Assembly (NCBI GenBank): GCA_947630575.1
Contig: CANRIB010000002.1
Location: 30,725-94,724, forward strand
Direction of reading: 5' to 3'
Length of the DNA: 64,000 nucleotides
Origin: an uncultured Bacilli bacterium
Lineage (GTDB): Bacteria; Bacillota_I; Bacilli_A; RF39; UBA660
The notes under the pieces are model-generated. The model worked only from the letters and a program-made list of their open reading frames with translations. It was not told where the DNA came from and searched no databases. The position numbers were made by a program, and so were the translations under genes. How positions within the stretch are numbered: the first letter of the stretch is position 1; every line of letters begins with the position of its first letter. Shown here piece after piece: positions 1 through 56,166 of this stretch.

Positions 1-1058
1 CTTGAATCATTCCCTCCTGAAACTAATCTTAAATATGCTCCATAGTATGTTTGTGTTGTTCCAGTTCCACCTTCATCGTCCTCACTTCCCCATGCTGTTG
101 TCTTATCAGTTGAATTTCTTCTATCATTACAAAAACCTACATTTGAATCTATTTTTCCATCTCCATTATTAAATTCATCCTTTAAATTTTTATCAAACCA
201 TTCATTTAGTACAGTCAATACATTGCTTTTAGTAGCAGTATTTCCAAATCCATGTTTTTGATCAATTTGATATTCGAAACCCACGTATTCAACTCTATCA
301 CTATTATCATTATACTTTACATTTGTAGAATTATTTATTAACGCAGATTGTCCACTTGTTGTGTATCCTCCATCACTCGTTGCAGGCTTGCCCTCACCAG
401 CGTATATCATTCTAATTGTTCCATTTCCATTTATTCTAATAATTTGCCAATATATATCCTGACCCAAACTATTTTTTCCAAATTTTACCCAATTATCTTT
501 TACTTTTCCTCTAAAATAATATGTTGTTCCTAAATCATCTGTATCTGAATATAATATGGACTTTTTATTTCCATCTATATGTTCTTCTTTATCTATATCT
601 GTAAATCCATCTTGTCCAATATTTGTAGTTCTATTAGATAAAATTACTTCAGAAGCATTAATTTTGAAATCCAAATACACATAACATTTAGTACCCTTTT
701 TAGTTATTCCTATATATACTTTATTATCTTTATATTCCATTGGTATATTTTTCAATTGGGTAGTACCACTTCCAATTGTACAATAACTTTTATTTGTATT
801 TACTTCATAACTTCCACTTGGCACTTCGTCTTTTAAAGTATAGTTTTCACTACCTTTACTATCTTGTACTTTTAATGCTATTACATTTAAATCTGCTAAA
901 CTATAATTAACATTTCCATTAACTATTTGTATACTTTTGGTTACTTGATATTTTGCTTTGCTATTTGTTATATATATTATTCCCATTATAAATAGTAATG
1001 TTATTATAGCTACTATTATTTTCTTACTTTTTCCTTTACTTAACTTCTCTATTCTCAT
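1..1058 (-). CDS. Paralogous anchored secreted protein, copy 1. This is the N-terminal ~350 aa; the C-terminus lies beyond the window start. It has an N-terminal Lys-rich signal-anchor/TM segment, an N-domain with two Cys, and the family motifs YYFRG...IYWQIIRINGNGTIRMIYAG and GFCNDR.
   Basis: Reverse-strand translation gives MRIEKLSKGKSKKIIVAIITLLFIMGIIYITNSKAKYQVTKSIQIVNGNVNYSLADLNVIALKVQDSKG...; this aligns with ORFs 54131..55582 and 28852..30699. An AGGGAAG RBS precedes the ATG at 1058; an alternative upstream ATG is at 1097. About 290 bp (845-1135) are nearly identical to 55325-55620. Confidence 0.7.
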   Translation of the reverse strand, partial: MRIEKLSKGKSKKIIVAIITLLFIMGIIYITNSKAKYQVTKSIQIVNGNVNYSLADLNVIALKVQDSKGSENYTLKDEVPSGSYEVNTNKSYCTIGSGTTQLKNIPMEYKDNKVYIGITKKGTKCYVYLDFKINASEVILSNRTTNIGQDGFTDIDKEEHIDGNKKSILYSDTDDLGTTYYFRGKVKDNWVKFGKNSLGQDIYWQIIRINGNGTIRMIYAGEGKPATSDGGYTTSGQSALINNSTNVKYNDNSDRVEYVGFEYQIDQKHGFGNTATKSNVLTVLNEWFDKNLKDEFNNGDGKIDSNVGFCNDRRNSTDKTTAWGSEDDEGGTGTTQTYYGAYLRLVSGGNDS

Positions 1059-1078
1059 TAATCTTCCCTTCTTTATAA

Positions 1079-1745: not shown

Positions 1746-1827
1746 GTCTAAACTTAGGACTAATCTTGTATCCTAATTCTACTATACTAAACCTTAATCA
1801 AGTATATGAGTTTCTTTAGGATATTGG

Positions 1828-1935
1828 GCGCACACCATTCGTGTTATCCACGCGGTTGTTGTTGAGGTAGCCACTCGAATTCACATTGAACACGACAGCA
1901 TTGCCACTGCTGTTGGTGTTATACGGAGACTATAA
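1828..1935 (-). pseudogene. Remnant of the C-terminal end of a fourth member of the anchored secreted-protein family (about 35 codons).
   Basis: A locally GC-rich patch; reverse translation gives ...NAVVFNVNSSGYLNNNRVDNTNGVRPIS*. This is comparable to the paralog 3 C-terminus AHVFGVNSDGYLGSDYVYTTRGVRPVINLKADT. The upstream frame is closed, so only a fragment remains. Confidence 0.5.
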
Positions 1936-13687: not shown

Positions 13688-13716
13688 AAGATAACACCCA
13701 ATTAAAGTGTTATCCT
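13688..13716 (-). terminator. Hairpin GATAACAC-n9-GTGTTATC followed by a T-run on the minus strand, overlapping the stop of the giant ORF.
   Basis: Inverted repeat read directly; minus-strand reading gives the hairpin followed by CTTTTTAT. Confidence 0.45.
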
Positions 13717-16700
13717 TTATTAACTTTTAAATCACTGACATCTTGCTGTGGGGTATCTAAAAATATATCATCTAGAAAATCATCAGTTTCTTTTTTAAGT
13801 GCATAATATAAATCTCTTCTTACTTGATTACTTTCTGTAAGTCCAAGTAAAGGTGCTAATTCTAATCTATTACACCAATAATCACTAATACATGTCGGTT
13901 TTCTTTCTAAAAGTTTTCCTACATCTGTTCTATAATGCTCTGCATCTTTTATTAAGGCATCATAGAATCTTTGAACATAATCTTTAACATTAACTACTTT
14001 ATTAAGTTTTGCTAAATTATCTTTTGTTTCTTGAAATCTATATTTTTTATATGTATCAAAATCTTCAAACTTACCTTCTGTTATTGTTTTAAGAGCCATC
14101 GTATCCGTTTTATAATTAGCATAAGAAACTCCTTTAGATGGATCATCTATATTATTATATATTTCTTTTCTTATATAATTAATATTACTATTATATTCAA
14201 TATAACCCTTTTCATAACCTGCATAACCAAGCATTTCATATGCAATCCATTTTAAAGCATAAGAATCAGGTCTACCATCTGGATTATTTGGCTGATACCA
14301 ATGCACTGAATTAAGTCCTTCTCCTCCATAAGAGTTAGAGCCTCTACTAGCTACTTTATAAACTCCTGGATAAAGCATTAATCTATTATTAATTAAATCA
14401 TCTATCGAACTTAAATGCATATCTTGAAAAGCTTTAGTATCTAAATAAGAATATCTTGTGGTCTGTCTTGCTCTAAACTTAGAATATTCACTTCCCCCAT
14501 ATTTTTCTTCATTTGGATAAGATACTTGAACCGCCGTATTAGCCTGATCATCAGGATCAAGTTGTAAAAATGCCATTGCTTCTATATAATCCATTACATA
14601 TATTGTTTTAAATACTTTATTATAATAATCATATATTTCTGCTGGAGTATCTATTCTTTCTGGAGTATAATTTGACCCAATTTGAGTATCTTTATCAAAA
14701 TATACTGATAAATTCATAACTATATCATTAGGTCCAAAAGATTGCATTAAATTACTATCCGCGTAATCTTCTCCACCCGCATCAAATCTTCGTCCATTAT
14801 TTCGTAAGAATAATCTTGCATCAATATTATGGGCTGATTCATGTGACCAAGTATGATATGTATATTCTTGTACTTCCCCATATTCTGGAATTAAATTACC
14901 ATCCATTAAACCTTCGGCACTCCAATCAATCCTATCACCCCACGCAACCGCGGCATTACCATCACTATAAGCCCATTGACCTACAACTTCATTAAAATTC
15001 TTATGGAACGGATCACTTGTTGTATAAGGTTGCTGATAAGTTGAAGAACCATTTATATCATAAGTATATCTTTTATCTGTTTGGAAAGTATGAATATCAT
15101 TAAATACTTGAGCATCATTAAGTAATTTATAAGCTGTATCATAATAACTAGCCATTCTAGTTGTATAACTCTCCACTCTTCTTTTAAACTTAACTTGCTC
15201 ATCTGGATTTTCTGGATCAACCATATAAGTCCTCTCTGAACCTATAATAAATTGCACTGGACTTGAAATAATATAAGCCGCATTTTTAGGTAAAGTAAGA
15301 ATTGGTAAAATAAAGTTATATGGCTTATAGCTATTACCTTTATGATTTGCATCTTCATTACTAAAATGATCCCATAAAGTATATTGCACTTCAGGATGAT
15401 CTTTAATTGGTATTTCAACTAAATAACCTTTAAATTGTTCTTTAGTCCATATATCCATATCCTTATCACTAAACTCTGTTACCACATATTCCAAGAACTT
15501 AGCAATTGTCTTTAAATTAGTATATTCTCCTAAAACAGAAGCATATCTTGTATTAGTTTCATTTGTTTTAAAATTATTACTATCTTTAAAGAATAAATCT
15601 GTTATTCTTAAAGGCGTTAAACTATTATCAAACCCTTGCATATTAAATAAAACAAAATCATATAACTTCATACCATCTATATCAATATCATAAAAACGTC
15701 TTAAATAATTATACATATATAAAACTTTTTCTATTTTTTTATCTTTCTTAATTTCTCTTTCTATATAGCTATTAATACCATCATTATTCGTAGTATTTGT
15801 ATAATTACTATTTGCTAAAAATTTTAAAACAAACTCTTTTAATTCTTTACTTGTTACCTCATTATAAAAATCCCGATATATTCTACTATCATCCATAGAT
15901 GTTAAAATATCTAAATTATTCGTATAATCTAAACTACTTAAATAATTAGTTAAATTATTTACAACCTGTGAATTAGCATCTATTACATAATGATTATAAT
16001 TATAATCTATTCCTAGTTTATCAATTCTATAACTAGCTACCATATCATATGTATTATCAAATCTAACATCATATTCTATCTTTTCTTTAGTTTTAAATAC
16101 TATTTTAATCTTACTTATTTTTTTAACATTATCACTAGTTAAATAAGTAACAATACCCCCAGTTTTATCTACTGGTACTATATGACTTATTTCTTTATTA
16201 TCTAAATAATCATCATTAATATATTTCGCCGTATTTATTATTTTATCTTTATCATAAAAAGGCATTAATTTAGTTAAATTTTCATATAATATTTCTTTAT
16301 TAGAATCATATCCTTGCATATCACTATAAGGGGATTTTACTTCAAAATCTTCTCCTTTAAATATTGGTGGATTATCAAAAGATACTCCATCTAAATTCCA
16401 GATACTATCATCCCAATGAAGAGTATTTTTAAAGAAACTTGCATTAATTTCCTTTTTAGAAATAACATTAATACTACTATTTTGATTAGAAGCTAATTTT
16501 GATTCTTCCAGTTCATAAACATTATTAGCTTTAATCCCATTACCATGAACTCTATAACCACCTGTTCCATCCGCAAAACTTACACTATTATTTAAATAAG
16601 TATTATTTACATTGTTAGTCCAACCAAGGAAACCTGCTTTTGTTCCTGAACTTGTCGTTAATTCAACTTTACTATAACAATTTTCAATTGTCGCCTTATC

Positions 16701-19700
16701 TACTTCTCCAACAATTCCCCCAATCGCATCCCAACTACCGGCAATAGTACTATTATTAATATAACTATTTCGAACTATTACATTATTGTATGATCGCCCA
16801 ATAAAGCCACCAATTCTTTTACCTCCACTAGCCATACTATTAACAATTGAAGATGCCTCAATTATAATACTATTTTTAGTATCACCAAACATAATACCTG
16901 TTCCATCCGTAACTTCATTAGCTTTAATACTACTATTATAAATATGTACATTATCTATTTTTACATCTGTTGCCGTATTAGCAAGTATTCCTCGAACTGC
17001 CCCTGATATTTTGGCTTTATCAATAGTTAAATTTTTAATCTCCGCATTAGCCCCTAATTCTTTAAATAATTGTTTATCTAAATTATAAATCTTATGCCCA
17101 TTACCGTCTAAAATTCCACTATAAGATAAAACATAATATTCTGAATCAGTATTTATTAAGCTTGCATCATAATCCCTCATTAAAGTTACATTTTCATTAT
17201 TATTTAACTTCTCCAATAATTCTTTTAAAGCTTTATCAGGATGAAATTCATTTCTAACTATTCCCTCTTTAATTTCCCCAAAATCTATTCTAATAGTTCT
17301 TGTTTTATTGGTATTTTCTTTTGTCACATATTGATAATCTAAAACAATAAATAGATGCTTATTCTCTTCTACCACCATTTTAATTTTTGCTCTAACGCTT
17401 GGCATACTATCCATTACAACTTCAACAAAATAGTCATCTTTATTATTTTTAAGTTCTTGAACATTTATTTCATCTACTAATAAAACTTTTTCAAGCCCAT
17501 TTTCTTCTGTAACTTTATATAAACTAACATCTGTTATATCTTTTAATTCAATATTATTTTCATCTAAAGAAATAACCTCATCTAAAAGTATTGCGCTCTC
17601 ATAATAATTAGGACTACCCTCAATCATATCTATATCTCTATCATAATCTACATATACTTTTACATAATATCTCAAAACATTATCTAAAGAAACAAACCTA
17701 ATTTCTTTTTGATAACTACCATTATATTTTTCTTGACCTTTATCATCCACGATTAAAACTCGAGCATTACCCACAAGTGATTTATCTGTATCTGTAGCTT
17801 CTAATGTTAATTTAATTTGTTTATTATCTAATATTTCATATTTAAAATTACTAATCGTAATAACATCTTTTAATATTTCTAACTTAATTTTAGTTTCTTC
17901 TTTTAAAGTTATTTTCTTTCCATTATTTAAAATAATGTCGGTAATAACTACTTCTTTTTCTCCACAAGAACTATAACCATTAAGCATAACTTGATATTTA
18001 TCTTCTATTTTAGTTAAAAGATATTCTTTATTATCAATAATTACTTTTTGAGGCTCTACTCCTAATTCTTCTTTAATTCCAGCAATCTCAAAATTAAGCT
18101 TAACATCTTCATTTTTTAAAAAGTACTTATTATTATCTTTACTTAAAGCTACTCCCTTATTAATAGTTATATCTTCATATGTACTATCACTAAATAACCC
18201 ATATTTCGCCTTAAATATTTCTTTATTACTATATTCATTTTGATCTTTAGCTTCTTCTAAAATATCACTATCTAAATCATAACTAGCCAAAATCGAAAAA
18301 TCCATATTTTCATCTTTTTTTACATCAAGAAAAGTAATCGTGTTATGTCCTCGTTTAATTTCTTGCTCTTTATCGCCTAGTCTAATTTTTCCCTCTTTAA
18401 AGCTATCATCATTATCTTGAGCTTTCTTATCTAATAAAACATCAAAATCAAATGTAACTTCACCCTTTAAATAATCATCATTAATTATTAAATTAGCAAT
18501 TTTCGGTTCATCTTTTAAAACATCTATTGTTATTTTATTATCTAAAACGGTATAAAAATTATGTATTTTGGTGTAATAACTAGTATATTCTAATTGTACA
18601 CGATTAGCCATAATATCTAATATTCCTGCTTCATCAGGAACTGTTAAAGTAACTCTTGAACGATAGGTATTTGCTTCATCTGTTTTTTCTTGCTCTGCTA
18701 CATAATTAAGTCCATTAATTGTAATCGCCGATAATCTTGTATAATTACTTCCTATATTATAATTAGTTTTAAAATCATTTTGCACACTATCGCCAACATA
18801 AACATAAAAACTAAGCTCATATCTTTTCTGTCCTTTAGTTGGATATTTAGTATTTGGTGTTTTAATTTCTATTCTCTTAATATAAATATCATTTACTATT
18901 GTTATTTCTTCTTCACCAATACTTGTATCTGTATAAGTGTATTTATCCCCTAATTCATAGCTGCCTAAAAACTCTACTTTATAATGTCCATCTGTATTTT
19001 TATCATAAGCTAACAAAATCTCTTGCTCTTTATTATTAACTAAATCATCTATATCTTTTGATACTACTATTTTTCCTGTTGAATCAACTAAAACAGCCTT
19101 TAAACCCTTTAAAGTATTATCTCCATCTTGGATTTTAAAATTAACTTTAATACTTTTAGTATCTTTAATATCTTGTAGCTCAATATTGGTAACAACCGGT
19201 TTAGTTTTTAAAACATTATAAGTTAAAGTATTCGCATGATAATCTTTTTCATTTAAAAATGTTCTTAATGTTCTTAAAGCAACACTATCTAAAGTAACGG
19301 TATGCTTACCCGGAGTAGTTAAAGCATCAGTTAATTCTACCTCATACAAATCCCCTGTTACTTTTGTAATCATATATTCATTAGTATTATCTTTCATTGT
19401 TAAAGTTGCTCTTTCAATTGGCACATTTTTAACATTAGAGCTCTTAAAAGAAACAATCGGCTTCTCATTTTTCTGAATTGCATCTGTAATTCCTACATCA
19501 GTTAAAACAAAATCATAATTTCCACCCAAAGTAAACGTATGACTAAATATTTCTTGTTCAACATATAAATTATCTTTATTTGTTTTATCACTATCTAAAT
19601 CATAAGTAGCTAAAACTACAATATTATAAATTTTATCTTCCAAAAACTCATAATGAATAGTATTATCACTCTTTAATACTTCACTCATTAATTTATTATT

Positions 19701-21146
19701 ATTTTCATCATAAATATAAATAGTTCCTTCTATTAAAGCATCTTCTAAATCATGCAATTTAAAACTTAAAGTTTTAGCTTCATCATTTAAATTAAACATA
19801 TTAACTGCCGGTATATCCTTCAATACCTCTTTTTTAAACACTAACTTACTACTAACTTCTTTTTGATTACTTAATAAAACATCCGTAATTACAAATTCAT
19901 ATTTACCAGATTTCGTTGGACTATCAATAGTAACAGAATAAATTCCATTATTAAATTCTACCGCGTAATACTTGCCATCAACTTTAACTTTTACTATTTT
20001 AGCATCTTTAGGAGTTATTGTGGCCTCAAAACTAAGCGTAACTTCCCCTTTTTTAACATAATTATTATCTTCCTTTATCTCATTTAAAATAACTTTACTA
20101 TTCTCTGTTACTTGTTCTGTAATATGGCCTGCATCATCAACATCAACTTTCCCATCCCCATCTACATCATGAGAAAAATTATCATCTTTATTTGTTGTTG
20201 GCTTTTTATTATTTGTTGGTTTCTTAGTATTACTAGGCTTTTTAACACTTTCATTTTGATTTCCTACTTTATCATTATTTGTATCATTATCTTCATTATT
20301 ATTTAAAGTATTATCATCTTGCTCCCTACCAACATTAATTAAATATTCAATAATTTCTTTTGCATCTTGATAATCTTTAACTCCATCATCATTAACATCT
20401 TTTTTCTGATTATGTACTCCGAGTAAAATACCCACGATAACTAAAACCGCAATTTCACATATCATTAAAAGATAAAATTGTTTTTTATTATTATATTTAA
20501 ATTTAACATATAAAATAGCTAAAAGTAAAATACCCGCCACACTTAAAAGACCAGTCATAAAAGGTATCACTGTTATTGTTTTTATGATATTTTCATTATC
20601 TTCCTCAATTTTATTTTCTGAATTATTTGGTAATGCTTCATCATCTACAGCATCACGAGTTACCATTAATTTAATAGATGTCGTAGGATAATTAATCATT
20701 TTACTACCATCAGAAGAAGAAATATTTGTTAAAGCAATATTGGTATTCCCCACATTTGCTTTATCTTTAACTTTTAAATGCACAGTAAAAAGATTATTGG
20801 AAGTATCCCCAGATTTATTAATTATTCCAAACTTATTATTATATTCATTATATGTAACATCTATCGTATCATTATTAACATCAAAATTTGTATCATCTAT
20901 TTTCTCAAAAACATTTTCATCAAATTTTAAAGTAGCAATAACCGCATATAATTTTTTATCTTTTGGAAAACTTGCTTTAACTACCAGCTCATCCCCAACT
21001 TCTAAAACATCTTTGTTAGCCCTTAATGTTACCGCATCACTTGCCTTCACATTTATGGGTATTAAAACCATCATTAATATAAATATTAACAAATATTTTA
21101 CTCTATCTTTCATAATGCCAAAACCCCTCCAAATAAATATGCTCAA
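13710..21146 (-). CDS. Giant (2478 aa) cell-surface zinc metalloprotease, M26/ZmpB/IgA-protease-like. It has an N-terminal signal, a cohesin-like domain, two TM helices, dockerin-like Ca-binding loops, about 10 Ig-like repeats, a parallel beta-helix region and a C-terminal HEXXH catalytic domain.
   Basis: HEXXH plus downstream Glu: HTWSHESAHNIDARLFLRNNGRRFDAGGEDYAD. Gly/Asn-rich beta-helix repeats (NSSIKANEVTDGTGIMFGD..., NSYINNSTIAGSWDAIGGIVGE...). Dockerin-like DVNDDGVKDYQDAKEI and HDVDGDGKVDVDDAGHI. The signal plus paired TM helices near the N-terminus match streptococcal Zmp proteins. The likely start is MKDRVKYLL. Confidence 0.6.
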   Translation of the reverse strand: MSIFIWRGFGIMKDRVKYLLIFILMMVLIPINVKASDAVTLRANKDVLEVGDELVVKASFPKDKKLYAVIATLKFDENVFEKIDDTNFDVNNDTIDVTYNEYNNKFGIINKSGDTSNNLFTVHLKVKDKANVGNTNIALTNISSSDGSKMINYPTTSIKLMVTRDAVDDEALPNNSENKIEEDNENIIKTITVIPFMTGLLSVAGILLLAILYVKFKYNNKKQFYLLMICEIAVLVIVGILLGVHNQKKDVNDDGVKDYQDAKEIIEYLINVGREQDDNTLNNNEDNDTNNDKVGNQNESVKKPSNTKKPTNNKKPTTNKDDNFSHDVDGDGKVDVDDAGHITEQVTENSKVILNEIKEDNNYVKKGEVTLSFEATITPKDAKIVKVKVDGKYYAVEFNNGIYSVTIDSPTKSGKYEFVITDVLLSNQKEVSSKLVFKKEVLKDIPAVNMFNLNDEAKTLSFKLHDLEDALIEGTIYIYDENNNKLMSEVLKSDNTIHYEFLEDKIYNIVVLATYDLDSDKTNKDNLYVEQEIFSHTFTLGGNYDFVLTDVGITDAIQKNEKPIVSFKSSNVKNVPIERATLTMKDNTNEYMITKVTGDLYEVELTDALTTPGKHTVTLDSVALRTLRTFLNEKDYHANTLTYNVLKTKPVVTNIELQDIKDTKSIKVNFKIQDGDNTLKGLKAVLVDSTGKIVVSKDIDDLVNNKEQEILLAYDKNTDGHYKVEFLGSYELGDKYTYTDTSIGEEEITIVNDIYIKRIEIKTPNTKYPTKGQKRYELSFYVYVGDSVQNDFKTNYNIGSNYTRLSAITINGLNYVAEQEKTDEANTYRSRVTLTVPDEAGILDIMANRVQLEYTSYYTKIHNFYTVLDNKITIDVLKDEPKIANLIINDDYLKGEVTFDFDVLLDKKAQDNDDSFKEGKIRLGDKEQEIKRGHNTITFLDVKKDENMDFSILASYDLDSDILEEAKDQNEYSNKEIFKAKYGLFSDSTYEDITINKGVALSKDNNKYFLKNEDVKLNFEIAGIKEELGVEPQKVIIDNKEYLLTKIEDKYQVMLNGYSSCGEKEVVITDIILNNGKKITLKEETKIKLEILKDVITISNFKYEILDNKQIKLTLEATDTDKSLVGNARVLIVDDKGQEKYNGSYQKEIRFVSLDNVLRYYVKVYVDYDRDIDMIEGSPNYYESAILLDEVISLDENNIELKDITDVSLYKVTEENGLEKVLLVDEINVQELKNNKDDYFVEVVMDSMPSVRAKIKMVVEENKHLFIVLDYQYVTKENTNKTRTIRIDFGEIKEGIVRNEFHPDKALKELLEKLNNNENVTLMRDYDASLINTDSEYYVLSYSGILDGNGHKIYNLDKQLFKELGANAEIKNLTIDKAKISGAVRGILANTATDVKIDNVHIYNSSIKANEVTDGTGIMFGDTKNSIIIEASSIVNSMASGGKRIGGFIGRSYNNVIVRNSYINNSTIAGSWDAIGGIVGEVDKATIENCYSKVELTTSSGTKAGFLGWTNNVNNTYLNNSVSFADGTGGYRVHGNGIKANNVYELEESKLASNQNSSINVISKKEINASFFKNTLHWDDSIWNLDGVSFDNPPIFKGEDFEVKSPYSDMQGYDSNKEILYENLTKLMPFYDKDKIINTAKYINDDYLDNKEISHIVPVDKTGGIVTYLTSDNVKKISKIKIVFKTKEKIEYDVRFDNTYDMVASYRIDKLGIDYNYNHYVIDANSQVVNNLTNYLSSLDYTNNLDILTSMDDSRIYRDFYNEVTSKELKEFVLKFLANSNYTNTTNNDGINSYIEREIKKDKKIEKVLYMYNYLRRFYDIDIDGMKLYDFVLFNMQGFDNSLTPLRITDLFFKDSNNFKTNETNTRYASVLGEYTNLKTIAKFLEYVVTEFSDKDMDIWTKEQFKGYLVEIPIKDHPEVQYTLWDHFSNEDANHKGNSYKPYNFILPILTLPKNAAYIISSPVQFIIGSERTYMVDPENPDEQVKFKRRVESYTTRMASYYDTAYKLLNDAQVFNDIHTFQTDKRYTYDINGSSTYQQPYTTSDPFHKNFNEVVGQWAYSDGNAAVAWGDRIDWSAEGLMDGNLIPEYGEVQEYTYHTWSHESAHNIDARLFLRNNGRRFDAGGEDYADSNLMQSFGPNDIVMNLSVYFDKDTQIGSNYTPERIDTPAEIYDYYNKVFKTIYVMDYIEAMAFLQLDPDDQANTAVQVSYPNEEKYGGSEYSKFRARQTTRYSYLDTKAFQDMHLSSIDDLINNRLMLYPGVYKVASRGSNSYGGEGLNSVHWYQPNNPDGRPDSYALKWIAYEMLGYAGYEKGYIEYNSNINYIRKEIYNNIDDPSKGVSYANYKTDTMALKTITEGKFEDFDTYKKYRFQETKDNLAKLNKVVNVKDYVQRFYDALIKDAEHYRTDVGKLLERKPTCISDYWCNRLELAPLLGLTESNQVRRDLYYALKKETDDFLDDIFLDTPQQDVSDLKVNKG

Positions 21147-28293: not shown

Positions 28294-28692
28294 TTAATAT
28301 TTTTTATTTTTTTTAAATAAAAGTGTAAAAAAAAGTAAAATAAAAAGAAAACAAACCACCCCAATACTAGGAGCAACATATAAAGCAGGCTTATCTGCAC
28401 TAACATTTAAAGTTGTTTGATTATTATCAATCATACTTATATTAGTAGTTTTTTCTTTATACACTTTAAAATAATAACTCATTTGCTCTTTATCATTATA
28501 AACCGTAAAAATAACCTCATTTAACCCCTCTTCTAAATTATTACCATAAACACTAAGACTATAACCATCATCTATCTTATATTCATACTTCAATTCCTTA
28601 TCGTCATTAACAACATTAACTGTATAATTCGTATTTAAAGAATCAAAATCTAAAGCCATCTCGCCATTTAATATCTTCAAATCTTTAAGCAT
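28294..28692 (-). CDS. Small extracytoplasmic protein with a cadherin-like beta-sandwich-type motif and a C-terminal TM anchor.
   Basis: LNGEMALDFDSLNTNYTVNV resembles the cadherin-like beta-sandwich domain signature; C-terminal hydrophobic segment IGVVCFLFILLFFTLLF. The ATG at 28692 (MLKDLK) is chosen because the track start at 28743 is a TTG. Confidence 0.45.
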   Translation of the reverse strand: MLKDLKILNGEMALDFDSLNTNYTVNVVNDDKELKYEYKIDDGYSLSVYGNNLEEGLNEVIFTVYNDKEQMSYYFKVYKEKTTNISMIDNNQTTLNVSADKPALYVAPSIGVVCFLFILLFFTLLFKKNKKY

Positions 28693-28734
28693 AATACCAC
28701 CATTAAATAGTATAAATAAAAACCACCACTTTAT

Positions 28735-28838
28735 ACAAAACAAAAAGAACAGAGATAAACTCTATTCCCGTATTATGTTTGGGTAAAGGTAACCCTATTC
28801 TTGTCTATTAATAAAAAGGATAAGCATAATAGACAAGT
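28735..28838 (-). ncRNA. Conserved ~90-nt leader element, copy A. It has a conserved 5' core, a covarying hairpin and a GUUCUUUUUGUUUU tract, located upstream of 28294..28692. Candidate cis-regulatory RNA / attenuator.
   Basis: About 85% identical to 41714-41805. On the minus strand it ends in GAAUAGAG-UUUAU-CUCUGUUC plus a U-tract. A 11-bp perfect hairpin, CTTGTCTATTA-n17-TAATAGACAAG, lies at 28797-28834. Confidence 0.4.
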
Positions 28839-28851
28839 TTTTTATTTTAAG

Positions 28852-30699
28852 TTATTGGACTATGTAAGGGTTAGAACTTGTTCCTATATCTTCTCCATCA
28901 GTGAAGGTAAATGTTGTATCTGCCTTCAGATTTATTACTGGGCGCACACCAAAACTGTATGTTATTCCAGCAGCCCAAAGAGCTCCATTTTCTGAAACGG
29001 TTATCATATTAGCACCATAATGAGATGGAGACATGGTCCAATAAGTTTGATTTGTATATAACCAATAGCCATCATTATTAGCACCAAATCCTCCTGCATA
29101 CATTACTTCATCGGCGGATATTAGCCCTACTGGATATATCAAAGATTTATTTCCTGTAATTGCCTCTTTATTTGTGTAAAGATCATTTTTTTGTAAGCAA
29201 CTAAACATAGGCTGATGTTTTTGAAATACTCTTATATATCCTCCATAGTATGTTGTTGTTTTTTCTACTCCATAATTATTTTTATCAATTATAGAATTAG
29301 AAGTATATCCATCATATGGAGTTCTATCACCACAAAATCCTGCATTTATATCTAATTTAGATGTTAATTTTTTATCATCTATTGCTGTTTTATACCACAA
29401 ATCAATAATCTTTTTTATTTCACTATCATTAATATTGCTATGAGTATTATTATATCCTAATTCACTTTTAGGTTGATTTACATTTCCATACATATATCCT
29501 AAATAAGCATTATCTTCATATTTTGAATTAAATTCATAGGTTTCATTATTTAATTGTGTATTTACTCCCGAAAGTTTAGTTGTTGCTCCATTATAAATTA
29601 ATCTAATTGAACCATTACTATTGATTCGTATAATTCTCCAATATAAATCTGCAAATTTTATCCAATTATTCGTTACATTACCACGAAAATAATAGGTATC
29701 CCCTTCATTATCTTTTCCTTTACAAAGTAAGCCTTCTCCTTCATATTTTAAATTAATTGTTGGTTCTACTTCACTAGGACACCCTTCATCGATAGAATTG
29801 GATTTCAAATTTAGAGTTAATAATGTTTTATCTGCTGTTGGTTTAGAAAAATATAAATAACAAGCTGTTCCACTTTTACTCACATTTGATAATATTATCT
29901 CATTATTTTCTATTCTTACTTTTACTTCTTCATTATTACATTTTGTTTCTTCTTGATTTAATATATAATTATTATCAGGGATTTCTTCTACTTCTTCATA
30001 TTTGCCTTCTTCTGTTTCTTTGTAAAACGCTACTAAGTTTATATCGGCTTTAGTATTACTTATCTCTCCATATACTTTCCCTTCAAATTTATTTCCTATA
30101 TCTATACTTTGATTTCCATTATCTGGATATTCTACTATTATATAATAATATTTCTTTGCTCCTTCTTCTTTTGATGTTATAAATTCTGTATCAGTTATCT
30201 TTATTGTTTGTTCTTCTGTTAGTTTTGGTATCTCTCCTTCATTTATTGGTTCTCCTAATTCTTCTATGTTACTTGTACATACTTCATTTAATTGTTGGGC
30301 TCCATTTACTACTTTCTTTTTCTTTTCACAAGTTAATTCTATTTCTTTTTCTATATCTGATACATATACTTTATATTTTAAATTAGTATTTAAATTATTT
30401 GTTCCTACCCATGTTAAGTTATAGGCTATGAGTTCATTATTACCTGTTGCAGTTGCTGTTACTTTAGATAATGTTTGATGTCCTGGATATATATCTATAT
30501 CACCAAAATTTATATTACCACTTATATCTAATGTTGAACCATTTACAGTCGCGGTTCTTCCTTCCGTGGTTGCACCTGTTCCTTTAAAAATAGTTTTACC
30601 TACAAAGTATGCTAAAGATACTCCTATTCCTAATATTAATACACTTAACAATAATATTACTCTTTTATTCTTTTTCATATATCCATTTCCTTTACCCAT
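28852..30699 (-). CDS. Paralogous anchored secreted protein, copy 2 (615 aa).
   Basis: N-terminal signal-anchor (MKKNKRVILLLSVLILGIGVSLAYFVG) and an N-domain with Cys pair (KCNNEE...GTACYLYF). C-terminal family motifs: TYYFRGNVTNNWIKFADLYWRIIRINSNGSIRLIYNG, AGFCGDRTPYDGY, YYGGYIRV, YPVGLISADEVMYAGG, YWTMSPS and GVRPVINLKADT. The likely start is the ATG at 30678 (AAAGGAAA RBS). Confidence 0.75.
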   Translation of the reverse strand: MGKGNGYMKKNKRVILLLSVLILGIGVSLAYFVGKTIFKGTGATTEGRTATVNGSTLDISGNINFGDIDIYPGHQTLSKVTATATGNNELIAYNLTWVGTNNLNTNLKYKVYVSDIEKEIELTCEKKKKVVNGAQQLNEVCTSNIEELGEPINEGEIPKLTEEQTIKITDTEFITSKEEGAKKYYYIIVEYPDNGNQSIDIGNKFEGKVYGEISNTKADINLVAFYKETEEGKYEEVEEIPDNNYILNQEETKCNNEEVKVRIENNEIILSNVSKSGTACYLYFSKPTADKTLLTLNLKSNSIDEGCPSEVEPTINLKYEGEGLLCKGKDNEGDTYYFRGNVTNNWIKFADLYWRIIRINSNGSIRLIYNGATTKLSGVNTQLNNETYEFNSKYEDNAYLGYMYGNVNQPKSELGYNNTHSNINDSEIKKIIDLWYKTAIDDKKLTSKLDINAGFCGDRTPYDGYTSNSIIDKNNYGVEKTTTYYGGYIRVFQKHQPMFSCLQKNDLYTNKEAITGNKSLIYPVGLISADEVMYAGGFGANNDGYWLYTNQTYWTMSPSHYGANMITVSENGALWAAGITYSFGVRPVINLKADTTFTFTDGEDIGTSSNPYIVQ

Positions 30700-30704
30700 A
30701 TCAT

Positions 30705-30751
30705 TATAACATATTGTTATATCAATATTATTTTATAACAAACTGTTATAA
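30705..30751. promoter_or_regulatory. Two perfect palindromes, TATAACAtatTGTTATA (30705-30721) and TTATAACAaacTGTTATAA (30733-30751), in the divergent promoter region of cassette copy 2. They are candidate operators, distinct from those of copies 1 and 3.
   Basis: Read directly from the sequence; they lie between the paralog start (30678) and the XRE start (30805). Confidence 0.45.
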
Positions 30752-30804
30752 TTGTCAATGTGTAATTTTAATTTGTTTTAAAATATATAAAGAGGTAATT
30801 ACTT

Positions 30805-31056
30805 ATGTATGAAGATTTGAAGTTAGAAAGATTAAAAGGTTTAAGAGAAAATAAAGATTTAAAACAAGAAGAAATAGCTAGACTATTAAATATAACTCAA
30901 AGTGCTTATAGTTATTATGAAATGGGAAAAAGACAAATCCCCAGTGATGCTCTAATTAAACTAGCATTATTTTATAATACTTCTGTTGATTATCTTTTAG
31001 GTTTAACTGACGAAAGAAAACCTTACCCAAAAAGCTTTTTAACCAAAAATAAATAG
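30805..31056 (+). CDS. XRE-family HTH transcriptional regulator (single HTH), cassette copy 2.
   Basis: LKGLRENKDLKQEEIARLLNITQSAYSYYEMGKRQIP...LALFYNTSVDYLLGLTDE; RBS AAAGAGG. Confidence 0.75.
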   Translation: MYEDLKLERLKGLRENKDLKQEEIARLLNITQSAYSYYEMGKRQIPSDALIKLALFYNTSVDYLLGLTDERKPYPKSFLTKNK

Positions 31057-41713: not shown

Positions 41714-41805
41714 AAAACAAAAAGAACAGAAAGCAAAAACTTTCCATTTTGTATTATGTTAGGGCAAAGGAATACCCATAATCTTGTCTATTAATAATAG
41801 GATAA
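41714..41805 (-). ncRNA. Conserved ~90-nt leader element, copy B, located between the UPF0154 (YneF-like) gene and the Pro-rich protein gene. Candidate cis-regulatory RNA / attenuator.
   Basis: About 85% identical to 28735-28823. On the minus strand it ends in GGAAAG-UUUUUG-CUUUCU plus GUUCUUUUUGUUUU. The stem differs from copy A but pairing is preserved. Confidence 0.4.
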
Positions 41806-52727: not shown

Positions 52728-53831
52728 TTGAGACATAATAGTAATATGAAAAAGAAAAAAATAATTAACAAATTACCTCTCATAATTCCTTTATTAATAC
52801 TAATTATTATTTCTTTAATTAACATGAAAATAATCGGTATTAATAATGAAATATATAGCAATTATTTTCTAAAACAAGTATTATGGTTTATACTTGGATT
52901 TATTTCTATGCTCATAATTATTATCTTTAAACCCAAAATACTATTTAAATATAGCAAATATTTATATTTATTAAATGTTTTACTTTTAATATTAGTTTTA
53001 TTTTTTGGCGAAACCATCAATGGTTCTACTGCTTGGTTTAACCTCTATTTCTTTTCTTTTCAACCCAGTGAACTCATGAAACTAACATTAACTCTTTATC
53101 TATCTGAAACATTATCCCATTATAAAGAACATAGCTTCAAACAAGAATTTAAACTTATCTTAAAAGCTTTCTTCATAACTTTAATCCCTTCTTTATTTGT
53201 ATTTTTAGAACCTGACACTGGAGCAATCATAATTTATTTCTTAATCATGTTAGGAATAATTATTGTATATAAACTAAACTATAAATGGTATTTAATTATA
53301 GGTATTATTATCACCATTATTATATTAACTTTTAGTTATTTATATCTCTATCAAAAAGACTTATTAATTAATCTTATTGGCACATCTTTCTTTTATCGCA
53401 TAGACCGCATTTTAACATTTGTAAAAAATGATTCTTTTCAATTAGATAGAGCCTTAATTGCCATAGGAACTTCAAGTATTTTAAAAGGTAGTAATTATAT
53501 TTATATTCCTGAAGCCCCAACTGATTTTATTATTGCTCTTTCTATAAATAATTTAGGTATTATAAGTTTCATATTAATTTTAATTTGTTTTATAATTCTA
53601 GATTTCTATTTTCTTTTAAAACTTTTCAAAGCCCAAAATTTAAAATTTAAAATGTTCTTTTCTGGTTTTCTCTTCATGTTTATTTTTGCTCAAATCCAAA
53701 ACATTGGCATGAATCTCGGACTATTTCCCATCATTGGTCTTCCTTTACCATTTTTAAGTTATGGGGGCACAAACATAATAGTTTACTTCATGTTTTTAGG
53801 CATTTTAGCTAGTAAAAGCAAAAATTTTTAA
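52728..53831 (+). CDS. SEDS-family protein (RodA/FtsW).
   Basis: Ten TM segments; motifs FQPSELMKLTLTLYLSE, IPEAPTDFIIALSINNLG and GLPLPFLSYGGTNIIV. Confidence 0.85.
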   Translation: MRHNSNMKKKKIINKLPLIIPLLILIIISLINMKIIGINNEIYSNYFLKQVLWFILGFISMLIIIIFKPKILFKYSKYLYLLNVLLLILVLFFGETINGSTAWFNLYFFSFQPSELMKLTLTLYLSETLSHYKEHSFKQEFKLILKAFFITLIPSLFVFLEPDTGAIIIYFLIMLGIIIVYKLNYKWYLIIGIIITIIILTFSYLYLYQKDLLINLIGTSFFYRIDRILTFVKNDSFQLDRALIAIGTSSILKGSNYIYIPEAPTDFIIALSINNLGIISFILILICFIILDFYFLLKLFKAQNLKFKMFFSGFLFMFIFAQIQNIGMNLGLFPIIGLPLPFLSYGGTNIIVYFMFLGILASKSKNF

Positions 53832-54021: not shown

Positions 54022-54083
54022 ATTGCCAAAATTTAACATTTAAAACAAAAAAGTGAGGAGAAATCCCCACATGGAATTTAATC

Positions 54084-54130: not shown

Positions 54131-55582
54131 TTATTGTACTACAAATGGACTATTTGTTGTTCCTTGACCTGTAAATTGGGTATCAGCCTTCAGGTTTATT
54201 ACTGGACGTACACCTCTTGTAGTGTACACGTAGTCGCTCCCAAGGTAGCCATCAGAATTCACACCAAACACGTGAGCCTCGCTAACGGCAAAGCGAAACG
54301 GAGACATTGCCCAATAATTTTGTTCACCTGTATACAACCAATAACTTGTATTACTTGAATCTCTTCCTCCTGCAAAATTTACCTCGTCTGCCGTTATTAA
54401 GCCTATTGGATTGGTTAATTTTCTATTTCCAGTTTTAGCTCCACTTACTGTATATAAATCATTACTTGCATTTGGACAATCAAATGTGGGTTTTCTTGGT
54501 GATTTATATGTCCTTACATATGCTCCATACCGAGTTGATGTTGTTCCAGCTCCATATTTAGTTTTATCTGGTTGGGATGTTGCACTTGTTCCATTCCATT
54601 CATATGGTGTTCTATCTCCACAAAATCCCGATTCTGTATCTATATATTCAGTTGCATTTTTTTCATTATTTTTTGCTTTTGATAATACAGTTTCATACCA
54701 ATTATCTATATATTCTTTTATTCCACTATCATGGGTGTTTGCATGAGTTGCATTGTAGCCATCTAAAGTTTGTGTTTGACTAGTTTCTCCATACATATAT
54801 CCTACATATGCATTATCCCCATCTTTTGCATCTTTACTGAATACGTGACCATTTCCATTATCAAGCATTGTCGCTTTTCCTGTTGCATTAGACGTTGTTC
54901 CACTATAAATTATTTTGATTGAACCATTACTATTTATTCGGATGATTCGCCAATACATATTTGCAAATAATACATAATTGTTGTTTATCGTTCCTCTATA
55001 GTAATATGTTGGTAATCCATTTTCTTCTCCTTCATATATCCCATTAGTTGCTTCTTCACATCCATCTTCACATGATGTTTTATTAAAATCTGGTACATAT
55101 AAATTAACATCTATAGTTCCTATTGCTGTTTCTACTTTCTTAGTTGTTGTTACATCTAAATATACATAACATTTTGTTCCCTTTTTGTTTATACTTATAC
55201 TAACTCTATTATTTTTATATTCCATTGGTATATCTTTATGCTCTAGATTATCTCCTGGATATTTGCAATAACTTTTATCTTTGTTTACTTCATAATTACC
55301 AATTGGCACAGTTTCTGCTTGATTATATGTTCCACCACCTTTACTATCTTGTACTTTTAATGCTATTACATTTAAATCTGCTAAACTATAATTAACATTG
55401 CCATTAACTATTTGTACACTTTTAGTTATCTGATATTTTGCTTTGCTATTTGTTATATATATTATTCCTACTAGCAATACTAATATTGTTATAGTTAATA
55501 TTATTTTTTTATTTTTTCCTTTACTTAACTTCTCTACTTTCATTAATCTTCCCTTCTTTATAATTGACTTATTATCAATCAT
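54131..55582 (-). CDS. Paralogous anchored secreted protein, copy 3 (483 aa in the track; likely 470 aa from the ATG at 55543).
   Basis: N-terminus MKVEKLSKGKNKKIILTITILVLLVGIIYITNSKAKYQ... is nearly identical to copy 1 at both nucleotide and protein level. C-terminal motifs: TYYYRGTINNNYVLFANMYWRIIRINSNGSIKIIYSG, SGFCGDRTPYEW, RYGAYVRT, NPIGLITADEVNFAGG, YWAMSP and GVRPVINLKADT. Confidence 0.8.
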   Translation of the reverse strand: MIDNKSIIKKGRLMKVEKLSKGKNKKIILTITILVLLVGIIYITNSKAKYQITKSVQIVNGNVNYSLADLNVIALKVQDSKGGGTYNQAETVPIGNYEVNKDKSYCKYPGDNLEHKDIPMEYKNNRVSISINKKGTKCYVYLDVTTTKKVETAIGTIDVNLYVPDFNKTSCEDGCEEATNGIYEGEENGLPTYYYRGTINNNYVLFANMYWRIIRINSNGSIKIIYSGTTSNATGKATMLDNGNGHVFSKDAKDGDNAYVGYMYGETSQTQTLDGYNATHANTHDSGIKEYIDNWYETVLSKAKNNEKNATEYIDTESGFCGDRTPYEWNGTSATSQPDKTKYGAGTTSTRYGAYVRTYKSPRKPTFDCPNASNDLYTVSGAKTGNRKLTNPIGLITADEVNFAGGRDSSNTSYWLYTGEQNYWAMSPFRFAVSEAHVFGVNSDGYLGSDYVYTTRGVRPVINLKADTQFTGQGTTNSPFVVQ

Positions 55583-55597
55583 ATTAGAAATTTCTAA
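55564..55597. promoter_or_regulatory. Operator-like palindromes TTGACttattATCAA and TTAGAAATTTCTAA in the divergent promoter of cassette copy 3.
   Basis: Same sequences as in copy 1 (1079-1112), with one mismatch in the first palindrome. Confidence 0.45.
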
Positions 55598-55710
55598 CTT
55601 ATACTAAAATTATAAACTCTTATATACTAAAAGCCAAGAAAAATATAGATATTTATTCGGTTTTATAAGTTACATCTTAGAAGTATGAGAAAATTAAACT
55701 GGTGATACAT

Positions 55711-56166
55711 ATGAATTATGGAATTAATCTAAAAACTTTAAGAGAAAGAAATGGTAAAACAGCAGTATCAATGGCTAAATTAATTAATGTCAGTGATAGT
55801 CTTTACAGCCGATACGAAAAAGAAAAACAAAGCATGCCCCTAAAACATCTAATAACTATATGTGATTACTTTAATGTTTCATTAGATTATATTTTTAATT
55901 TTACAAATACTAGACAATATCCCAATAATAACAAAACATATAACATAGAACTAATAAAAATAAGATTAAAAGAATTAAGAAAAGAAAATAATATTACGCA
56001 AGCAAAAATATCCGAATATCTTAACATCGACCAACCCACTTGGTCCATTTATGAAAAAGGAAAAAGCCTAATAGGCCTTCCCTTTTTACATATGTTATGT
56101 ACTAAATATCATATCTCTGCCGATTATCTTTTAGGTAGAATAAATAATCCTAAATATCTTAAATAA
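55711..56166 (+). CDS. XRE-family regulator with two tandem HTH_XRE domains, cassette copy 3.
   Basis: INLKTLRERNGKTAVSMAKLINVSDSLYSRYEKEKQ...LDYIFNFTN and KENNITQAKISEYLNIDQPTWSIYEKGKSLIGLPFLHMLCTKYHISADYLLGRIN. The track start at 55702 is a GTG; an ATG at 55711 is preferred. Confidence 0.75.
   Translation: MNYGINLKTLRERNGKTAVSMAKLINVSDSLYSRYEKEKQSMPLKHLITICDYFNVSLDYIFNFTNTRQYPNNNKTYNIELIKIRLKELRKENNITQAKISEYLNIDQPTWSIYEKGKSLIGLPFLHMLCTKYHISADYLLGRINNPKYLK

Follow-up and report, generated by a model that had tools for sequence, protein, structure and literature searches.

The vsp, vsa and vlp genes of Mycoplasma represent the variable surface multigene families of Mollicutes. The modules described here share with these families a large number of surface paralogues, a small and AT-rich genome of a host-associated organism from the Bacilli/Mollicutes lineage, and a conserved 5' end followed by a variable remainder. 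Unlike them, however, our modules carry no lipoprotein signal, have no single expression site and no visible invertase or repeat-tract switch, and every copy possesses its own promoter, terminator and XRE regulator.

The large proteins of the modules end in a domain of the C-type-lectin-like fold, for which the closest solved structure is the DUF6273 domain at the N-terminus of the IgA peptidase from Thomasclavelia ramosa (IgAse/ThomasA, PDB 9qa6). That domain is dispensable for the enzyme, has no assigned function and lacks the long loop of C-type lectins (PDB 9qa6). Proteins matching Pfam PF19789, among them phage tentaclins targeted by DGRs and receptor-binding proteins resembling Mtd, share the C-terminal signature YWxxSP...GVRPxxxL and the C-type-lectin-like fold with the heads of our proteins, and likewise have their most variable segment just before GVRP (PMC10743442). 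However, only the last ~50 of the 172 profile positions match our heads, and whereas the phage proteins diversify by adenine-directed mutagenesis, the heads diversify by whole-segment mosaicism, with no DGR found nearby. The C-terminal domain of Lcl (PDB 8q4e) and TvpA (2y3c) are also bacterial surface C-type-lectin-like domains, but they are much smaller, show low similarity, and come from single genes instead of a regulator-paired multigene family.

As for the regulators, Cro/C1-type repressors have the same HTH_3 domain and divergent genes, and their two palindromic sites likewise lie within the promoter and immediately behind it. Most of the regulators presented here are, in contrast, two HTH domains fused in a 150-aa chain without a sensor or oligomerisation domain, and they adjoin chromosomal surface-protein genes, whereas Cro/C1-type repressors adjoin prophage or toxin-antitoxin genes. 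Neither the fold nor the regulator type is new, nor is the concept of variable surface families, and the modules constitute no new category.

The modules come from a clade of uncultured, small-genome, AT-rich Bacilli that are common in animal and human guts and have been labelled “Mycoplasma sp. CAG:776”, “uncultured Tenericutes” or Candidatus Caccenecus. To our knowledge, almost nothing is known about how members of this clade make contact with their surroundings. The regulator-paired, lectin-like family fills a visible share of the genome and is a candidate route of attachment and of escape from antibodies or phages. We favor, with a probability of roughly 55%, the reading that the modules encode a family of surface binding proteins that is diversified by recombination and locally repressed.

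Three copies of a two-gene module

Within the window, i.e., the whole 64-kb stretch of DNA analysed here, an XRE gene is paired with a gene for a large protein at 1-1690 (module C, cut by the window edge), 28852-31056 (module B), and 54131-56166 (module A). The sequence-only reading had described the same two-gene module as occurring three times, which was borne out by tblastn matches within the window: A (54131-55582, minus strand) and B (28852-30699, minus strand) share 40% identity over 442 aa (E = 3e-85), A and C (1-1097, minus strand) 46% over 370 aa (E = 1e-81), and B and C 29% over 313 aa (E = 2e-29). The start of A is likely internal, at M14 (coordinate 55543), which is preceded by the ribosome-binding site AAGGGAAG; that of B is probably M8 (30678), as taken from the P0006 locus. 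Because gene C runs off the start of the window, only its first ~352 codons are visible. The large-protein genes, from the list of open reading frames and translations, are as follows.

54131..55543, minus strand: predicted surface protein A, 470 aa when read from M14 and then equal to called protein P0001; the open reading frame extends to 55582
28852..30678, minus strand: predicted surface protein B, 608 aa from the probable start M8; the open reading frame extends to 30699
1..1058, minus strand: predicted surface protein C, first ~352 codons, identified by its tblastn match to A
1819..1929, minus strand: possible remnant SPYNTNSSGNAVVFNVNSSGYLNNNRVDNTNGVRPIS*, 37 codons, whose translation has the motif VF.VNS.GYL....GVRP

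The shared motifs proposed for the three proteins are present in the alignment, except that A reads RYGAYVR instead of YYG and B reads YPVGLISADEV instead of NP; for C, the comparison covers the first ~352 codons, with NPxGLI, YWxMSP and GVRPV lying beyond the visible part. The additional remnant counted in the sequence-only reading, the 37-codon fragment, resembles the C-terminal end of the head domain over 26 aligned residues (tblastn, E = 0.003), a plausible but weak match.

Anchor, stalk, and head of the large proteins

In the plan common to the modules, a membrane anchor is followed by an Ig-like stalk and then by a lectin-like head. The AlphaFold2 model of A (pLDDT 89.2, pTM 0.81) delineates the following regions.

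55442..55513, minus strand: N-terminal hydrophobic helix (residues 11-34, KKIILTITILVLLVGIIYI), modelled as a single helix after the Lys-rich start
55103..55372, minus strand: β-sandwich (Ig-like) stalk (residues 58-147), strands in the model, with the conserved Cys pair
54134..55051, minus strand: enlarged C-type-lectin-like (DUF6273-type) head (residues ~165-470)

The Lys-rich hydrophobic N-terminus and the roughly 100-aa N-domain with a Cys pair, both recognised from the sequence, thus correspond to one helix and to a β-sandwich of ~90 aa following it, in which the Cys pair (C247/C273 in B) is invariant in alignment A5. Judging from the model, the hydrophobic helix is probably a signal-anchor, though it may be cleaved; a Cys lipobox after the helix is found in neither of the large proteins A and B. 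Protein B is organised like A with an extra segment of ~180 aa after the anchor, and its model comprises a helix (5-30), a β-sandwich (215-278), and a head (~310-608) with pLDDT above 90, residues 28-212 being without a model. The SLAYF and TLDISGN motifs of B had pointed to a SipW/TasA-type signal followed by a camelysin-like N-domain, an idea that we dropped because no Pfam or NCBIfam model supports it and modelling failed for the 180 additional residues. Pfam Wzz matches of 18-22 bits cover the transmembrane helix only and are regarded as spurious.

Fold and family of the head

Although the C-terminal domain had appeared unassignable to any family, Pfam, fold comparison and Foldseek place it in the DUF6273/C-type-lectin-like fold group. 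In the structure comparison of the A model, the N-terminal domain of IgAse scored far above the matches to formylglycine-generating-enzyme (FGE)-like structures, and lectin-type matches were also above the latter. The IgAse domain was followed by the Legionella Lcl C-terminal domain, T. denticola TvpA, many C-type lectins, and Mtd, and the nearest viral structures in Foldseek are DUF6273 proteins. The head has both the core fold of C-type-lectin-like domains (CTLD) and likeness to known DUF6273 structures. Searching the solved structures by sequence gave no match to the large protein, whether the query was that protein by itself or a profile of 66 members; only the comparison of folds did.

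The group of DUF6273-like domains comprises 5,815 clusters at 50% identity. Among the 66 family members, 35 match Pfam PF19789 at E<0.01, and homologues such as P0015 (37.3 bits), P0007 (32.4), P0020 (29.0), P0050 (28.6) and P0008 (24.9) exceed the threshold. Proteins A (18.5 bits) and B (20.2 bits) fall below the gathering score of 23.5 and match profile positions ~123-171 only; they are therefore outliers of the family or superfamily and not clean members. NCBIfam returned nothing but noise. The sequence-only reading had set its proposal against a match to a known lectin or pilin family, and the result goes halfway: the domain is of the lectin type, but DUF6273 itself is functionally uncharacterised. 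We know of no ligand for any DUF6273 domain, and we infer possible sugar binding by the head from its fold class alone. The heads are short and single, making them a tractable representative of the DUF6273-like group for binding and structural work.

Divergent XRE regulators

The divergently transcribed XRE genes reported earlier are real, with Pfam HTH_3 matches at E values from 1e-14 to 1e-19.

55711..56166, plus strand: XRE-A, tandem-HTH, 151 aa from a likely internal start (Pfam HTH_3/HTH_19 in two stretches, E = 1e-18); the open reading frame starts at GTG 55702
30805..31056, plus strand: XRE-B, single-HTH, 83 aa (Pfam HTH_3, E = 3e-14), 95% identical in the syntenic locus L022
1235..1690, plus strand: XRE-C, tandem-HTH, 151 aa from a likely internal start (Pfam); the open reading frame starts at 1139

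HTH_3 (PF01381) is above threshold in all three, with 67.5 bits in two stretches for XRE-A, 70 bits in two for XRE-C, and 53 bits in one for XRE-B. The earlier description of the regulators as tandem-HTH proteins holds for 55702-56166 and 1139-1690 but not for 30805-31056, which has one HTH domain. From residue 4 onwards, XRE-C is 54% identical to XRE-A, which can be aligned with the tandem XREs of 27 related loci; in these tandem proteins the C-terminal HTH is highly conserved and the N-terminal HTH variable.

The suggested co-occurrence of the XRE gene with the head domain in related genomes was confirmed, as 45 of 67 related loci have a divergent XRE immediately upstream (tandem-HTH in 37 of the 45), and at least six further loci have more divergent HTH genes upstream. 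These counts, together with the same chromosomal sites across species, argue that the regulators are dedicated neighbours and not stray prophage repressors. CAG:776 and Lapin-004 retain position A, and Lapin-028 retains position B. The distant two-domain relatives are without an XRE.

Promoters, leaders, and palindromes

Scans of the module flanks and intergenic regions revealed the following elements.

55609..55637, minus strand: promoter-like site of gene A, TTGGCT-17-TATAAT (consensus scan, 10/12 matches)
55544..55608, minus strand: constant leader (5'UTR) of gene A, with the palindrome TTAGAAATTTCTAA at 55584-55597; nearly identical in A, C, L083 and L002
1059..1234, no strand assigned: intergenic region of module C, which shares the constant leader and has the palindrome at 1099-1112
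30730..30758, minus strand: promoter-like site of gene B, TTGACA-17-TAAAAT (consensus scan, 11/12 matches)
30733..30751, no strand assigned: candidate operator 1 of module B, TTATAACA-N3-TGTTATAA, in the promoter spacer and -10 (repeat search)
30704..30721, no strand assigned: candidate operator 2 of module B, second palindrome copy just downstream of the -10
54053..54070, minus strand: intrinsic-terminator-like hairpin and T-run after gene A (scan)
28745..28769, minus strand: intrinsic-terminator-like hairpin and T-run after gene B (scan)

Every gene is equipped with a separate promoter and terminator, indicating monocistronic transcription, and 14 related loci preserve the TTGACw-17-TATAAT architecture. 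Exact copies of the leader 14-mer in 850 kb of loci all sit 35-55 nt before a family gene (11/11). The leader of gene A has an RNA fold z of -2.5; Rfam found no RNA family in the leaders and three tRNAs only elsewhere, and the leader 23-mer has no exact match in JGI metagenome contigs.

The palindromes noted earlier beside the XRE genes coincide in part with the promoters, and their arms are preserved from one species to another, which makes them candidate operators. In module B, the arms are conserved in L022 with a varying centre; L085 has the same operator layout with a different palindrome, and the P0006 locus has this layout with CGTAAyATATTACG. The mean best palindrome arm in 56 intergenic regions was 7.6 nt against 7.0 nt in shuffled AT-rich sequence, including an artefact from an N-run in L068, and about 6.8 against 6.2 nt without it by a rough estimate; overall, these AT-rich regions show no longer-than-chance palindromes. 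As this general length test was negative, the weight lies on the specific recurrent or conserved palindromes alone. Since the leader palindrome is common to modules whose XREs are ~40-54% identical, it may not be their specific operator, and it showed no clean correlation with XRE subtype as defined by recognition-helix residues.

Fixed sites and mosaic divergence

The multi-copy nature of the family extends beyond the window, with at least 11 genes in one MAG. The neighbours of the modules are housekeeping genes (SMC, ComEC, LepA, HemW, CdaA/CdaR, FtsW, and MurD), and the sites are conserved across species. The arrangement had been called diversifying, and two comparisons demonstrate that the surface genes change faster than their surroundings by mosaic exchange. 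Between the B locus and L022, LepA is 95%, HemW 92%, and the XRE 95% identical, versus 48% for the surface protein, with DNA identity dropping from ~90% to ~50% inside the surface gene. The L022 head is 74% identical to that of P0027, not to B, indicating that the head came from another lineage. Between A and its paralogue P0002, identity breaks sharply at the -10 box, and dS rises from 0.05-0.18 in codons 1-160 to 0.35-0.94 beyond; the overall dN/dS is 0.36, with only small windows near 1. The 3' flank of A is 89% identical to that of P0002. The presumed placement of P0002 and P0006 in one genome rests on their common sample and ~5x coverage. An informal look beside the modules did not bring a recombinase gene to notice.

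Proposed function and alternative readings

The favored reading starts from the architecture, fold class, regulator pairing, synteny, conserved palindromes and mosaic divergence established above. The N-terminal helix would hold the protein in the membrane with its Lys-rich end inside, and the Ig-like stalk would carry at its tip the ~300-aa enlarged C-type-lectin-like head of the DUF6273 kind. Exposed at the surface, the head would bind an extracellular ligand, for instance a glycan or a different surface molecule belonging to the host, to food or to neighbouring microbes, so that the proteins would act as adhesins or receptors. Each gene would be transcribed alone from a strong sigma-A-type promoter to its own terminator, and the divergent XRE would most likely bind the palindromes over the promoter or early transcript and repress the surface gene, probably also itself. 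With several modules at fixed chromosomal sites of the genome, recombination or gene conversion among paralogues would swap heads and homogenise the leader. The repertoire of heads would then change quickly, presumably with an adaptive value, while regulators and neighbours stay in place.

The head could instead be an enzyme of the C-type-lectin fold, resembling the FGE/EgtB branch and acting on the cell envelope or on glycans of the host, with paralogues differing in substrate. The polar residues D310, R311, R344, D386, E387 and R446, plus C308 and C356, are invariant across the family, a pattern that fits a fixed site of function or catalysis no less well than it fits a variable surface for binding. 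We nevertheless consider an enzyme unlikely: FGE-like structures scored below lectin-type ones and far below the IgAse domain, no enzyme family was found in Pfam or NCBIfam, giant proteins carry as many as 22 head-type domains in tandem, as is typical of binding modules, and the adjacency to cell-wall genes may be chance in a small genome. Equally doubtful is strict antigenic or phase variation, in which one or a few paralogues would be on per cell, XRE repressors would cross-regulate through the shared leader palindrome, and leader recombination would place new heads under active promoters. In 14 loci from several MAGs, the promoter and leader are constant and the TTAGAAATTTCTAA within them is invariant, every tandem XRE has a highly conserved C-terminal HTH next to a variable N-terminal one, gene-conversion tracts begin precisely at the -10 box, and each genome has many paralogues. 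However, a complete promoter is present at every copy, there was no sign of an invertase, an inverted-repeat switch or a hypermutable tract, B-type modules have different, module-specific palindromes, and the leader could be an RNA element instead. Similarly improbable in our view is a previously undescribed antigenic-variation-like system of uncultured gut Bacilli, in which a tandem-HTH repressor network would pick through the leader palindrome which of a dozen lectin-like receptors is shown, and gene conversion started at the leader would make new heads.

A phage origin or target of the modules, as prophage receptor-binding remnants with their repressors, DGR targets, or defence or superinfection-exclusion genes, appears very improbable. 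Even though DUF6273 domains are typical DGR targets and occur in receptor-binding proteins of gut phages (PMC10743442; bioRxiv 10.1101/2024.10.15.618418), the viral proteins nearest in structure are of this kind, and the XREs resemble phage repressors in PHROGs, the modules lie among housekeeping genes at species-conserved sites and their large proteins have a membrane anchor instead of a tail-fibre N-terminus. The large proteins have no PHROG match, A has no PADLOC match and B a single marginal one (PDC-S57, E = 0.0022), and in both collections matches to generic HTH models are confined to the XREs. Self-comparison of the window revealed no duplicate resembling a DGR template repeat, and a reverse-transcriptase motif of the GN[LY]TSQ type was absent from the window and 89 loci (955 kb). 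Toxin delivery, which the sequence-only reading had entertained, or a polymorphic toxin system whose C-terminal toxin domains vary would account for a conserved N-terminal part and leader with a variable C-terminal part swapped between copies, but is hardly credible here: all C-terminal parts share the lectin-like fold and core motifs, no toxin family was matched in Pfam or NCBIfam, and the monocistronic genes are followed by their own terminators and then by FtsW or unrelated genes, with no downstream immunity gene. We rejected the prophage, defence, DGR and polymorphic-toxin readings on the housekeeping context, the terminators, and the lack, in the window and loci covered, of matching profiles, motifs or a template repeat. 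For the reading as locally repressed surface binding proteins, the modules offer simple candidate promoter-operator-repressor pairs suited to in vitro study.

Three large genes, each facing an XRE gene

Three related large genes (A, B and C) lie among the housekeeping genes of a low-GC spore-forming Firmicute (SMC, ComEC, ComEA, LepA, HemW, CdaA/CdaR, FtsW/RodA, MurD, CotJ; window G+C 26.5%). Identity between A and B is 40% across 442 aa (E 3e-85), and between A and C 46% across 370 aa (E 1e-81). A divergent XRE gene stands opposite every one of the three, and the motifs listed in the sequence-only reading recur in the aligned proteins with minor deviations.

Large genes, XRE genes and their signals
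54131-55582, minus: large gene A
55637-55609, minus: sigma-A-type promoter of A, TTGGCT-17-TATAAT
54053-54070, minus: terminator-like hairpin of A (intrinsic-terminator scan)
55702-56166: XRE-A, two HTH_3 domains (Pfam)
28852-30699, minus: large gene B
30758-30730, minus: sigma-A-type promoter of B, TTGACA-17-TAAAAT
28745-28769, minus: terminator-like hairpin of B (intrinsic-terminator scan)
30733-30751: B palindrome copy 1, within the promoter spacer and -10
30704-30721: B palindrome copy 2, shortly downstream of -10
30805-31056: XRE-B, one HTH_3 domain (Pfam)
1-1097, minus: large gene C, ORF truncated at the window start
1139-1690: XRE-C, two HTH_3 domains (Pfam)
55584-55597 and 1099-1112: perfect leader palindrome TTAGAAATTTCTAA
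1819-1929, minus: putative remnant of 37 codons, reading ...AVVFNVNSSGYLNNNRVDNTNGVRPIS and stop

With their own promoters and terminator-like hairpins, the large genes appear monocistronic. The true start codon of A is likely the internal M14 (55543), which yields a 470-aa protein matching the called P0001 exactly, and that of B the internal M8 (30678); the tandem XREs likely start at ATG 55711 (XRE-A) and ATG 1235 (XRE-C). The 37-codon fragment is plausibly a remnant of the end of the C-terminal domain, the match being weak. Its G+C, judged by eye, seems above that of the AT-rich surroundings, a possible sign of foreign or older ancestry.

An enlarged lectin-like head on a probably membrane-anchored stalk

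Pfam matches only the last ~50 residues of the large protein, to DUF6273 (PF19789), with scores under the 23.5-bit cutoff for both A (18.5 bits) and B (20.2 bits); PF19789 was matched by 35 of 66 homologues, some above threshold. The AlphaFold2 model of A, built on an alignment of 66 sequences, is confident (pLDDT 89.2, pTM 0.81) and divides the protein into four parts.

Parts of protein A (AlphaFold2)
Residues 11-34: single long hydrophobic helix
Between helix and beta-sandwich: short linker, outside the model
Residues 58-147: beta-sandwich
Residues ~165-470: ~300-residue alpha/beta domain (head)

B follows the same plan, with ~180 extra residues behind the anchor that lie outside the model. 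The domain that the head resembles best, at the N-terminus of the Thomasclavelia ramosa IgA peptidase, is described as a DUF6273/C-type-lectin-like domain of double the usual size, dispensable for IgA cleavage and without known function (PMC12402451, PMC12237041; both 2025). In gut phages, C-type-lectin-like DUF6273 domains are targeted by DGRs and presumed to act as receptor-binding proteins (PMC10743442; bioRxiv 10.1101/2024.10.15.618418). The head, initially left unassigned, is therefore a divergent, enlarged member of the DUF6273/C-type-lectin-like fold group. Sequence likeness to that group is limited to the YWxMSP...GVRPVINL end, and PDB sequence searches with a single large protein and with the family profile gave zero matches.

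The 300-aa domain is very widespread, with 5,815 clusters at 50% identity (E<=1e-3; 752 at E<=1e-30) and up to 22 tandem copies in giant proteins; P0121 (4905 aa), P0122, P0123 and loci L087/L088 have 7-22 copies in a row. Its core motifs are strongly conserved, including invariant C308, D310, R311, R344, C356, D386, E387 and R446, and its variable loops comprise residues 221-240, 251-270, 286-330 and 416-442. In two related loci, a separate ~200-aa ORF precedes the family gene immediately on the same strand (L054 3390-3971, L075 5383-6012). The signal-anchor and N-domain that these ORFs encode (GFAAFSTTLNINGTS...) are of another kind, and the family match there covers the head only, suggesting another N-terminal architecture or a frameshifted gene.

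Conserved pairing and synteny

Scanning one genome per species, we found at least 573 relatives and kept 80 loci, nearly all from uncultured gut Bacilli such as "Mycoplasma sp. CAG:776", "uncultured Tenericutes UMGS1172", Candidatus Caccenecus and many rabbit-gut MAGs; two are titled "Ruminococcus sp.", and a single MAG, Lapin-028 bin40, contributes nine loci with 11 genes. Upstream sequence sufficed for 67 genes: 45 of them are immediately preceded by a divergent XRE gene, tandem-HTH in 37 cases, and at six or more of the other loci a more divergent HTH gene occupies the same place. The module is real and old. While the head did turn out to belong to a known fold group, the XRE genes are conserved neighbours at syntenic sites, rather than the unrelated prophage repressors that had been considered. 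The gene order at position A (CdaR, XRE, large gene, FtsW-MurD) is found again in L071 and in CAG:776 (L076), and that at position B (LepA-HemW, XRE, large gene) in the Lapin-028 locus L022; in other species a module copy lies upstream of LepA instead.

Two more paralogues, P0002 (adjoining RNase J) and P0006 (adjoining SpoIIP-MurG-MurB), each with a divergent HTH gene beside it, reside on contigs of the same sample with the same ~5x coverage, so that the organism probably has at least five module copies. Distant two-domain relatives of 730-805 aa are without XRE; the two-domain relative P0056, found on at least 119 contigs, is near an ADP-ribosylating exotoxin-family gene (PF03496).

Modules tend to adjoin cell-wall/division genes, which could be chance in a small genome: modules C and A are flanked by two different FtsW/RodA-family genes (1963-3135 and 52728-53831, respectively), with MurD and a glucosaminidase close by, and the P0006 module (L085) lies beside SpoIIP-MurG-MurB-FtsQ.

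Candidate operators and a constant leader

Module B contains two copies of the palindrome TTATAACA-N3-TGTTATAA, 29 bp apart. In the sister species that carries L022, whose XRE is 95% identical, the arms of both are kept and the central bases changed, as expected of operators, making them candidate operators. The P0006 module has a layout like that of B with another palindrome, CGTAAyATATTACG, which suggests matched regulator-operator pairs. Palindromes overall are not longer than chance in the AT-rich intergenic spacers of family loci, and we found no XRE residue pattern tracking the palindrome. In the tandem XREs, the N-terminal HTH varies and the C-terminal one is strongly conserved throughout.

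A near-invariant stretch is common to A, C, P0002 and the family member P0008; it starts at the -10 box, spans a leader of ~65 nt with the palindrome and extends ~25 codons into the gene. In total, 14 loci from several MAGs have this arrangement of promoter and leader, of which the more distant ones conserve just the promoter boxes and the region around the palindrome. The exact 14-mer leader palindrome occurs 11 times in 850 kb of fetched loci, every time 35-55 nt ahead of a family gene, and the leader RNA folds with a z of -2.5. The leader could be a common operator, another regulator's site, an RNA hairpin or merely a gene-conversion tract. A block ATGAGAAAATTAAA, which four modules (1139-1234, 55662-55710, L083, L002) conserve directly ahead of the start codon of their tandem XRE, may be part of an XRE promoter/operator or a tiny leader ORF (MRKLN...).

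Reshuffling of heads

At position B, LepA, HemW and XRE of L022 are 95%, 92% and 95% identical to those of the window, whereas the surface protein reaches only 48%, with DNA identity declining from ~90% to ~50% inside the gene. The L022 protein is like B and P0006 over its first 300 residues (62-63%), and its last 374 are 74% identical to P0027, of the shorter A-type architecture, a clear head swap. At the positions shared with CAG:776 and L071, identity is 54-80% for the flanking genes and only 36-37% for the surface protein.

When A is compared with P0002, the XRE side is 45-63% identical; precisely at the -10 box the value rises to 89-99%, and it remains high over ~540 nt before becoming patchy. 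Synonymous divergence is low in codons 1-160 (0.05-0.18) and higher in the later ones (0.35-0.94). This pattern demonstrates a mosaic ancestry produced by gene conversion. Recombination is evident from the sequence comparison; positive selection is not demonstrated by this pair, with an overall dN/dS of 0.36 that approaches 1 in short windows only.

Possible functions

In the most economical reading, to which we assign a probability of about 0.55, the large genes encode a family of surface proteins anchored in the membrane; their Ig-like stalks would carry lectin-like heads for binding, the neighbouring XRE would repress each gene locally, and the heads are reshuffled among paralogues. The analysis establishes the architecture, fold class, regulator pairing, synteny and mosaicism; surface exposure, ligand binding and repression are inferred. 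The main rival reading makes the head an enzyme from the FGE-like branch of the lectin fold; the invariant polar residues are compatible with it, and we consider it rather improbable. Strict antigenic variation, in which XRE repressors would cross-talk via the shared leader, has a similarly low probability.

A phage, DGR or defence role is unlikely in the housekeeping, syntenic context: the large proteins have no PHROG match, the sole PADLOC match is marginal (B, E 0.002), and neither a template repeat (window self-comparison) nor a DGR reverse-transcriptase motif (window and fetched loci) was found. Nothing speaks for the earlier idea of toxin delivery; a polymorphic toxin is unlikely with a single fold common to all heads and no immunity gene downstream of the large genes.

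The fold, the regulator class and the notion of variable surface families are already known, and the head lies inside or beside an existing Pfam DUF. In the literature searched, we found no description of the domain's conserved pairing with single- or tandem-HTH XRE genes, of the constant leader, or of head swapping at fixed chromosomal sites in this uncultured gut Bacilli clade.

Other features of the window

13710-21146, minus: 2478-aa protein with an M26 IgA1-specific metalloendopeptidase C-terminal region (PF07580, E 7e-30) and a GLUG motif
28737-28823 and 41714-41805: conserved intergenic element of ~60 nt, ~80% identical copies
28294-28743, minus: 149-aa ORF 3' of B, with a hydrophobic C-terminal tail

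The first of these is a giant ZmpA/IgA-protease-like surface protease, encoded in the same organism as lectin-like heads that best resemble a domain of another IgA peptidase. The ~60-nt element (core GTATTATGTTwGGGyAAAGG..TAmCCmTAwTCTTGTCTATTAATAA), one copy of which is immediately 3' of gene B, has zero Rfam matches. The 149-aa ORF as called overlaps the B terminator and therefore probably starts at M18 (MLKDL...). An orthologue with 45% identity lies beside HemW in L028, a related locus where the module is absent, which places this ORF outside the module.
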